Shown here one piece after another: positions 13,258 to 13,743 of a DNA stretch of 64,000 nucleotides. The position numbers were made by a program, and so were the translations under genes. Each line of letters starts with the position of its first letter. Within the stretch, counting starts at the first letter, position 1. The notes beneath the pieces were generated by a model. That model saw only the letters and a program-made list of their open reading frames with translations. It was not told the DNA's origin and did no database searches. The stretch is taken from contig OZ024743.1 of NCBI GenBank assembly GCA_964016885.1, positions 20,584,001 through 20,648,000 on the forward strand. The letters are read 5' to 3'. Source of the stretch: Eledone cirrhosa. Taxonomy: Eukaryota.

Positions 13258-13743
13258 AATTAAGTTAAAAATGTACATCTACATATGCATACTGAAATAC
13301 TAGTGTGTATATGAATACACACACGTATACATATGTAGGTGTAACAAGTCTTTCACTGGTTGCTTTACAGTGAGCAACCCAGCTATTCTGTATGTAAACA
13401 CACAGACAAACCGGTTTTTAGAGTCATACTGGTTTTCGGGGGAACACCTTCCCTCTATTCTCCAGAAAGCCAGACAAGGAATATTGAACTAGTTTCGTTG
13501 TTGTTACAACTCATCAGCAATATTTACCTATCTACCGGCCCTTCTGGAGAATTGTAAAAGCACATATCGTTATATGCTTTTTCTATGAAAATTAGTAGTG
13601 GGCAGACTAATTTGCATAGAGTGTGAGTACGCACCGGTTCAGCGGACACGATAAAAACAAATAACGAAACAAAGTTTAAGCGTCAGTCATACAAAAGTGA
13701 GTTACAAACGAAACAAAATTTAACTTCGTTTCGTTATGTTTTT
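13258..13743 (-). mobile_element. ORF-less multi-hairpin HHR element (retrozyme-like monomer, family R2)
   Basis: HHR at 13480-13524; same order of hairpins and motifs as the 50178 unit; TA arrays on both sides. Confidence 0.65.
13480..13524 (-). ncRNA. Minimal type-I hammerhead ribozyme
   Basis: Minus strand reads AATATTG CTGATGA GTTGT-AACA-ACAAC GAAA CTAG TT CAATATT: perfect 7-bp stem I, 5-bp stem II, palindromic CTAG, GUU site. Confidence 0.85.

Follow-up and report, generated by a model that had tools for sequence, protein, structure and literature searches.

The closest described relatives of the element reported here are the non-LTR retrozymes of animals and the Penelope-like elements (PLEs), and hammerhead ribozymes occur in both. 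In the canonical type I motif of metazoans, helix I is ~6 bp and helix II ~4 bp long, helix III has 1–2 bp and is closed by a palindromic loop, and the dimer is the active form (PMC4209133). Where helix III is of the newt or axolotl type, with one pair and a palindromic tetraloop, cleavage is reported to be efficient only in the dimer (PMC7229834). Of nine dimers predicted for Xenopus retrozymes, one cleaved in vitro and eight did not (bioRxiv 10.64898/2026.07.22.740005). For the giant squid, 235 hammerhead-1 loci are on record (PMC6962438).

PLEs are recognized by inverted truncated copies, one-sided tails and a bias toward (TA)n (PMC8557442). In the anole PLE, reverse transcription starts at two sites, which bound the tails, and cutting and extension involve both DNA strands; the RNA used was uncleaved, and its hammerhead was not required (PMC11167929). 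Co-occurrence and phylogeny are still the grounds on which the enzyme that moves animal retrozymes is debated (PMC7229834; bioRxiv 10.64898/2026.07.22.740005). At the level of titles and abstract openings, and with most subscription papers and the repeat databases outside coverage, our literature search found no paper on retrozymes of cephalopods or on tails of PLE type at the ends of retrozymes, and the word “tail” is absent from the accessible text of bioRxiv 10.64898/2026.07.22.740005.

The window analyzed here, a 64,000-nt stretch of Eledone cirrhosa DNA, is animal DNA with abundant (TA)n arrays and retroelement remnants (RT, endonuclease domains and the GIY-YIG of PLEs), and its repeat composition may resemble that of octopus genomes. 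The element studied, R2, lies at 13258–13745, and a related unit, R1, is found at 50.2–52.1 kb of the same window. We put at roughly 0.78 the probability that R2 is one copy of a ~467-nt repeat unit without an ORF, likely a non-LTR retrozyme copied into (TA)n by a Penelope-type reverse transcriptase/endonuclease.

The R2 unit and its hammerhead

A (TA)n microsatellite at 12427–13256 forms the left flank of R2 and is its likely insertion target. A preliminary description of this DNA had taken 13258..13743 as a single feature; what stands there is two pieces in opposite orientation, an inverted unit body on the minus strand (13258–13673) and a 71-nt tail on the plus strand (13675–13745), with both 3' ends facing outward into (TA)n. 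The body meets the left (TA)n with the 3' end that we call site 1, just before TTTAAG, as seen also in X7 record 16 and in X1 loose ends; the tail starts at site 1 and stops at site 2 (TTAT, followed by (TA)n). The motif ataacgaaacaaa, listed in the preliminary description and present at 13661–13673, is conserved, reads TTTGTTTCGTTAT in the minus-strand sense, and lies 10–12 nt upstream of site 2. It recurs in the tail at 13728–13737, so the R2 copy is longer than one unit. A minus-strand LINE with RT and endonuclease domains (13846–17700) has its 3' end ~15 nt to the right of R2, and there is no sign of a link between the two.

Family variants were drawn from four of 23 sequence runs (X1, X5, X7 and X21). 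In X7 record 16, X5 record 14 and X1 loose ends, the family reads from 13670 down to 13258, from 13674 up to 13727, and back to 13670; the unit thus closes on itself, in X1 through loose ends at 13670 and 13674. It measures 467 nt, with a GC content of 37%, a longest ATG-initiated ORF of 19–20 aa, and 66% of its bases paired as a predicted circle. The unit is multi-copy: 677 X1 contigs lie on the stretch, 367 of them below 99% identical, and 3258 X21 reads fall on it. Summed X1 depth is ~1e5–5e5 across most of the unit, a figure that is not a copy number. Pieces in runs X5 and X7, whose labels name other organisms, are mostly at least 90% identical at a depth of 2–32, against ~1e5 in X1, and may be traces of DNA from this same species. 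At such depths they give no evidence of other species or of age, and the suggestion that the family is an old one finds no support in them.

The minus strand at 13480–13524 carries a type I hammerhead, whose stem I (AATATTG/CAATATT) and two cores had been found in the preliminary description. Helix I has 7 bp; CUGAUGA occupies 13517–13511 (CTGATGA in the DNA); helix II has 5 bp and an AACA loop; GAAA lies at 13496–13493, within the GAAACTAG core at 13496; and a palindromic CUAG loop and a GUU triplet complete the motif, with a predicted cut between 13487 and 13486. The CUGANGA, GAAA and NUH elements of the type I core are thus all present, together with helices I and II. The short helix III with its palindromic loop reads ACUAGU in both R1 and R2. 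In the predicted monomer folds of R1 and R2, C3-U4 is buried against loop 3, an arrangement 1.5 and 2.1 kcal/mol better, respectively, than the open core, while in the predicted two-copy fold of either the core is open and helix III has 6 bp.

Rfam Hammerhead_HH9 (RF02275, clan CL00010) gives a full-model match to R2 with an E value of 2.7e-8. At 38.6 bits this lies below the gathering score of 52, and R2 is therefore not filed under HH9, which it resembles in the UA bulge of helix I and the A-rich loop 2 and from which it differs in a loop 3 shorter by five letters. No match in the window attains a gathering score in the Rfam scan, and R1, in which the base of helix II is U-U and not G-C, has no Rfam hammerhead match at E 0.001. 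As a control for chance, the core pattern was matched at 115 metagenome loci, none of them a homologue; among 94 matches to a stricter pattern, none had both stems of at least 4 bp, as do 4/5 of the copies in the window.

Variation within the ribozyme is also seen in the reads. At 13487, where R2 has GUU, the triplet is GUC in 186/527 X21 reads (~35%), and at 13490 loop 3 becomes CUGG in ~35% of X21 reads; both changes are nearly absent from X1, and together they possibly mark a linked subfamily. X21 is a restriction library, and its variant frequencies are biased for that reason. Its read-end piles at 13550, 13590–13593, 13609 and 13720 coincide with AATT sites and are read as library artefacts, such piles inflating the variants that remove a site (13553, 13611). 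A start pile at 13392, accompanied by 13395 T>C, likely reflects the site of the second enzyme. R1 copy B is changed at 50930, in helix I beside the core, and is likely inactivated; other copies have private changes that break pairs.

Insertion ends and mobilization

R1 comprises copies A and B, head-to-tail on the minus strand (50178–51014) with a hammerhead period of 487 and a left end at site 1, and copies C and D, inverted relative to these on the plus strand (51015–52086), whose right end is a 62-nt tail reaching site 2. The B-to-A junction contains the tail and the C-to-D junction does not. Tandem units are thus seen directly in R1 (A-B, with a helix I mismatch in B, and C-D) and, for R2, as end-to-start junctions in contigs. 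A foreign piece at 51260–51545, with a hammerhead-like core of its own (CTGAGGA..GAAAC at 51427), sits inside the (TA)n loop of copy C, and the unit's own hairpin loop is therefore a target for further insertions.

The two insertions share their ends. Both stop on the left just before TTTAAG, and on the right both stop at TTAT, a point at which CG follows in the unit (site 2, TTAT/CG). The R2 tail aligns to that of R1 only in the orientation opposite to the body: none of 1000 shuffles was as good, against 217/1000 for the reversed comparison. Two 3' ends split by a tail, an inverted truncated partner and an AT-rich target are found in 2/2 insertions. These common ends likely record priming at two sites by a Penelope reverse transcriptase, a reading of the sequence that rests on two insertions. 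L1-type twin priming at a random breakpoint was considered and is disfavored, as R1 breaks at the same site. The tails, at 62 and 71 nt, exceed the published 30–40 bp; that of a Penelope-like remnant in the window, used as a control (52165–54438; a 98.8% inverted pair in a (TA)-rich repeat, with GIY-YIG and a tail at one end), is ~60 nt, and the layout of this remnant agrees with that of R1 and R2. That two diverged families share their insertion ends amounts to a mechanistic footprint, and it points to a short RNA region testable in an in vitro PLE assay.

PLEs are present in the same genome, as GIY-YIG and RT matches in the window attest. The remnant at 52165–54438 has hammerhead-like cores at 54240 (+) and 52419 (-). 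Between (TA)n arrays at 30497–32923 lies an open PLE reading-frame fragment of 634 aa that comprises RT, a cysteine-rich linker and a GIY-YIG-like end; it is accompanied by a hammerhead-like core at 32678 and represents a candidate mobilizer clade. A long-stem hammerhead-like core (CTGATGA..GAAATGCGCAT) marks a further PLE-like family, at 7730–10172, 19319–19700, 26261 and 46590, whose 19.3–19.7 kb piece is a short inverted pair with an ~85-nt tail on one side. A short inverted-repeat pair between (TA)n arrays at 54660–54920 is possibly another PLE-type end. No PLE end in the window shows a sequence link to the R2 unit, and the R2 tail has no resemblance to that of the PLE at 52165 (860/1000 shuffles as good).

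On the retrozyme reading, tandem copies would be transcribed from the minus strand, and two hammerheads would then pair through ACUAGU, forming helix III and cutting at GUU. As has been reported for the retrozymes of mussel and axolotl, a ligase of the host would likely circularize the monomers. A Penelope protein could bind the tail region and nick both strands of AT-rich DNA, and cDNA primed at site 1 and site 2 would leave two outward-facing 3' ends with a tail on one side. Transcription, dimer cleavage, probable circularization and PLE copying primed at sites 1 and 2 in (TA)n are, taken jointly, about as probable as the identification of the element itself. R2 continues across the predicted cut site and contains the ~20 nt that precede site 2 a second time; a linear monomer that had been cut is therefore an unlikely template, and a circle or an uncut multimer a likely one. 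The circle step is uncertain, given that a single Xenopus dimer in nine cleaved and that in the anole PLE the hammerhead was dispensable.

We also propose, tentatively and at somewhat under even odds, that the terminal hairpin, site 1, the 60–70-nt tail, the GUUUCGUUAU motif and site 2 form a compact docking module for the Penelope reverse transcriptase, kept to the nucleotide in two families 40% diverged. If this is true, the genomic ends of families with the module are a direct footprint of two-site priming on retrozyme RNA.

The best surviving alternative, which we consider unlikely, is that R1 and R2 are solitary pseudo-LTRs, the 3' ends of autonomous PLEs whose ORF lies elsewhere, left by 5'-truncated insertions, so that a separate small-RNA cycle is unneeded. 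It would account equally for the tail, the inversion and the (TA)n footprint, and it suits an R2 locus that holds a single copy. Type I hammerheads do occur in pseudo-LTRs (PMC4209133), and 24/57 Xenopus retrozyme families have Repbase matches, nearly all to PLE ends (bioRxiv 10.64898/2026.07.22.740005). Against it, in contigs among the 20 of 102 loose ends considered, the end of the unit leads straight back to its start, no foreign sequence intervening; R1 has tandem copies and no ORF; the hammerhead, whose UA bulge matches, is of the canonical and not the minimal PLE type; and PLE ends in the window give no match. No join to an ORF with RT and GIY-YIG is found at the R1 or R2 locus, nor in these 20 of 102 loose ends.

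Homology, fold and compensatory change

The preliminary description saw little primary similarity between R2 and R1 and held that the whole fold was kept by covariation. The first point is contradicted by the alignment: end to end, R1 and R2 are 58–61% identical (235/386 and 220/363), and their global alignment scores 149.5 against −45 ± 13 for shuffles, the best of 200 being −1; without the AT-rich end, the score is 96 against −53 ± 13. As judged from these alignments, R1 and R2 are sister families, plain sequence homologues.

The individual hairpins of that description are in place: ggttgct/agcaacc (within 13356–13382), tctgt..gtaaaca..acaga (13387–13408), the enclosing stem ttctccagaa/ttctggagaa (13458–13467/13542–13551) and aaaagca/tgctttt, as well as atgaaaatta/taatttgcat, which has one mismatch. 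Their order is shared with R1, as had been said; since the hammerhead core reads on the minus strand, the order as listed, on the plus strand, is antisense to the ribozyme, and several stems differ in length between R1 and R2. The R2 fold surpasses shuffles on either strand (z of −8.8 for minus and −7.3 for plus; 0/100 shuffles as good), the minus strand folding better in two of three cores and equally well in the third. Independent folds of R1 and R2, compared through a sequence-only alignment with 80 and 88 pairs tested, have 30 pairs in common.

On the minus strand, a long low-complexity purine/pyrimidine hairpin (13270–13346) lies just upstream of site 1; by its composition it is weak structural evidence, and its R1 counterpart has a (TA)n loop of variable length. 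Rfam miRNA matches on the AT-rich hairpin were set aside as low-complexity noise. In the GGTTGCT/AGCAACC hairpin (13356–13382), two neighboring pairs are swapped in other family copies (X1 and X7 loose ends): 13361–13362 change with 13375–13376, on evidence that comes partly from loose ends, and the adjoining pair at 13377 is not kept. The next hairpin (TGTTTACA, 13387–13408, with a TTTA loop) has 8 pairs in common with R1, 2 of these altered on both sides. The cleanest compensatory pair is carried by a hairpin at ~13436–13456 that is absent from the preliminary description; here, 13442/13451 is G-C in R2 and X5 and A-U in X7 and most copies (~95% of X1 depth), and X5 and X7 each have a single contig in which the two sides change in phase. 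The stem that encloses the hammerhead and extends helix I (13458–13551) has four variant positions that give G-U on the minus strand only, and within the ribozyme the helix II pair 13498/13509 is swapped in 404/554 and 411/580 X21 reads. The hairpin AAAAGCATAT/ATATGTGCTTTT (13556–13581) has a shorter R1 counterpart.

Between R1 and R2, 6/7 double-changed pairs inside the hammerhead still pair. Outside it, the result depends on which fold is followed, with 5/12 double changes keeping their pairing in the R2 fold (p 0.49) and 12/18 in the R1 fold (p 0.012), both set against a rough chance rate of 0.375. Of the shared pairs outside the hammerhead, 3/20 covary, and in the octamer hairpin, the best conserved of all, with paired ATGCAAAT-like octamers, 0/10 do. 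Covariation is thus clear in the hammerhead, and the claim for the whole fold is overstated on these mixed counts. In a further test, double-changed pairs number 12, against 4.2 in column shuffles, a test with effectively two sequences and a structure taken from one of them, and 1–3 in slid controls.

Variants within the family supply a second line of evidence, based on the 37 rows used inside 13258–13670 from among those listed (40 of 75). One-sided stem variants among the listed rows (40 of 75) give G-U on the minus strand in 8/10 cases (p 0.055), and at a pair probability of at least 0.6 in 7/9 (p 0.09); this tally omits one transversion, four low-probability pairs, one ribozyme-core pair and the compensated pairs. 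A-to-I editing carried into the genome does not explain the changes, the sense A/G-class and C/U-class numbering 29 and 24 (p 0.58). Support for constraint at the RNA level outside the ribozyme is real but modest, and compensatory change is seen in some of the stems there, in two hairpins among within-family reads. The stems outside the ribozyme are likely kept, though loosely, since folding is needed for the RNA to be copied, and selection on them likely acts on the mobile element and not on a host function. The family is abundant enough for a covariation analysis of a whole retrozyme fold.

The octamer hairpin calls for separate comment. The octamer forms part of snRNA-type promoters, and ATGCAAAT, which we take to be the octamer consensus of these promoters, is found at 13617–13610. 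The stretch that contains it, the paired octamer-like sites TATGCAAATTA..TAATTTTCATA (13584–13618, minus strand), is the best conserved between R1 and R2; it shows no covariation, and even its C-U mismatch is conserved. The sequence ATGCAAATTA occurs three times in the window, each time within R1 or R2, and an octamer change at 13611 accounts for <1% of X1 depth. For newt satellite 2, itself a hammerhead repeat, an snRNA-type promoter has been reported, a point that we have second-hand (PMC2220036). The paired octamers of R2 are thus a candidate DNA promoter element, a lead and not a result; if it is true, the unit would be a self-transcribing, self-cutting, PLE-borne minimal replicon.

One may go further and read all the hairpins outside the hammerhead at the DNA level, as protein-binding palindromes (the paired octamers, TGTTTAC) or as inverted repeats evened out by template switching in a way that mimics covariation. 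The absence of covariation in the octamer hairpin, its conserved mismatch and the rarity of the 13611 change all lean this way, as do the reported newt promoter, the good folding of both strands and the TG/CA swap at 13361–13376, which could be CpG decay. The minus-strand G-U bias (8/10 among the listed rows) nevertheless needs an RNA phase, the minus strand folds at least as well as the plus in each core, and the variants at 13608 and 13611, within the octamer hairpin itself, also give G-U on the minus strand. We therefore hold the DNA-level reading to be very improbable as a general account, though it can apply to some stems beside the retrozyme explanation. Least credible of all is a host-kept structured non-coding RNA of a new kind, whose entire fold purifying selection would preserve for a role in the cell. 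For this reading one can cite the hairpin order shared by two families at ~60% identity and the excess of double-changed pairs over column shuffles and slid controls in effectively two sequences, but it sits poorly with many variant copies bearing transposon-type ends, private changes in individual copies that break pairs, differing stem lengths and the 3/20 shared pairs that covary outside the hammerhead.

Comparison with known systems

The preliminary description spoke of a structured RNA class. R2 is indeed structured beyond chance, and it fits a class already described and not a new one: the unit most likely belongs with the non-LTR retrozymes as these are defined in the accessible text of PMC7229834. 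In common with those of mussel, coral and axolotl, it is a short ORF-less repeat with a GC content below 50% and a canonical type I hammerhead, with a highly self-paired predicted RNA, many copies, tandem copies (in R1) and PLEs in the same genome (PMC7229834). Its 467 nt lie slightly above the 150–450 bp given there and inside the 51–972 bp range of bioRxiv 10.64898/2026.07.22.740005. The locus with an inverted monomer and tail differs from the retrozymes of PMC7229834, and the two fixed end sites and (TA)n targeting of R1 and R2 go beyond the descriptions in the accessible text of that source. The mussel retrozymes were set beside R2 by description, and their sequences may bear on the octamer, the tail motifs and novelty.

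The amphibian repeats offer closer parallels in detail. Axolotl HHR_Amex1 has a one-pair helix III with a palindromic tetraloop, as does R2, and HHR_Amex2 has U-U at the base of helix II, as does R1 (PMC7229834). An snRNA-type promoter is possibly shared with newt satellite 2 (PMC2220036, second-hand). The units of newt satellite 2, HHR_Amex1 and HHR_Amex2, which were likewise compared by description, measure 330–350 bp against the ~467 nt of R2. In the pDo500 satellite of Dolichopoda, also a hammerhead repeat, compensatory changes occur in helices I and II across copies, as in R2; there, the part outside the hammerhead is the less conserved, whereas in R2 the octamer hairpin is the best conserved (PMC2837043).

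PLEs and their pseudo-LTRs (Poseidon PAc of anole; Neptune and Naiad), as far as the available accounts describe them, share with R1 and R2 the two alternative 3' ends with a tail between, the inverted truncated partner, the AT-rich target, tandem copies and a hammerhead on the sense strand. R2 differs from them in having no ORF, a canonical and not a minimal hammerhead, and a tail of the 62–71-nt class in place of 30–40. Site 1, moreover, follows a long hairpin in R1 and R2, and it is AC-rich in R1 only.
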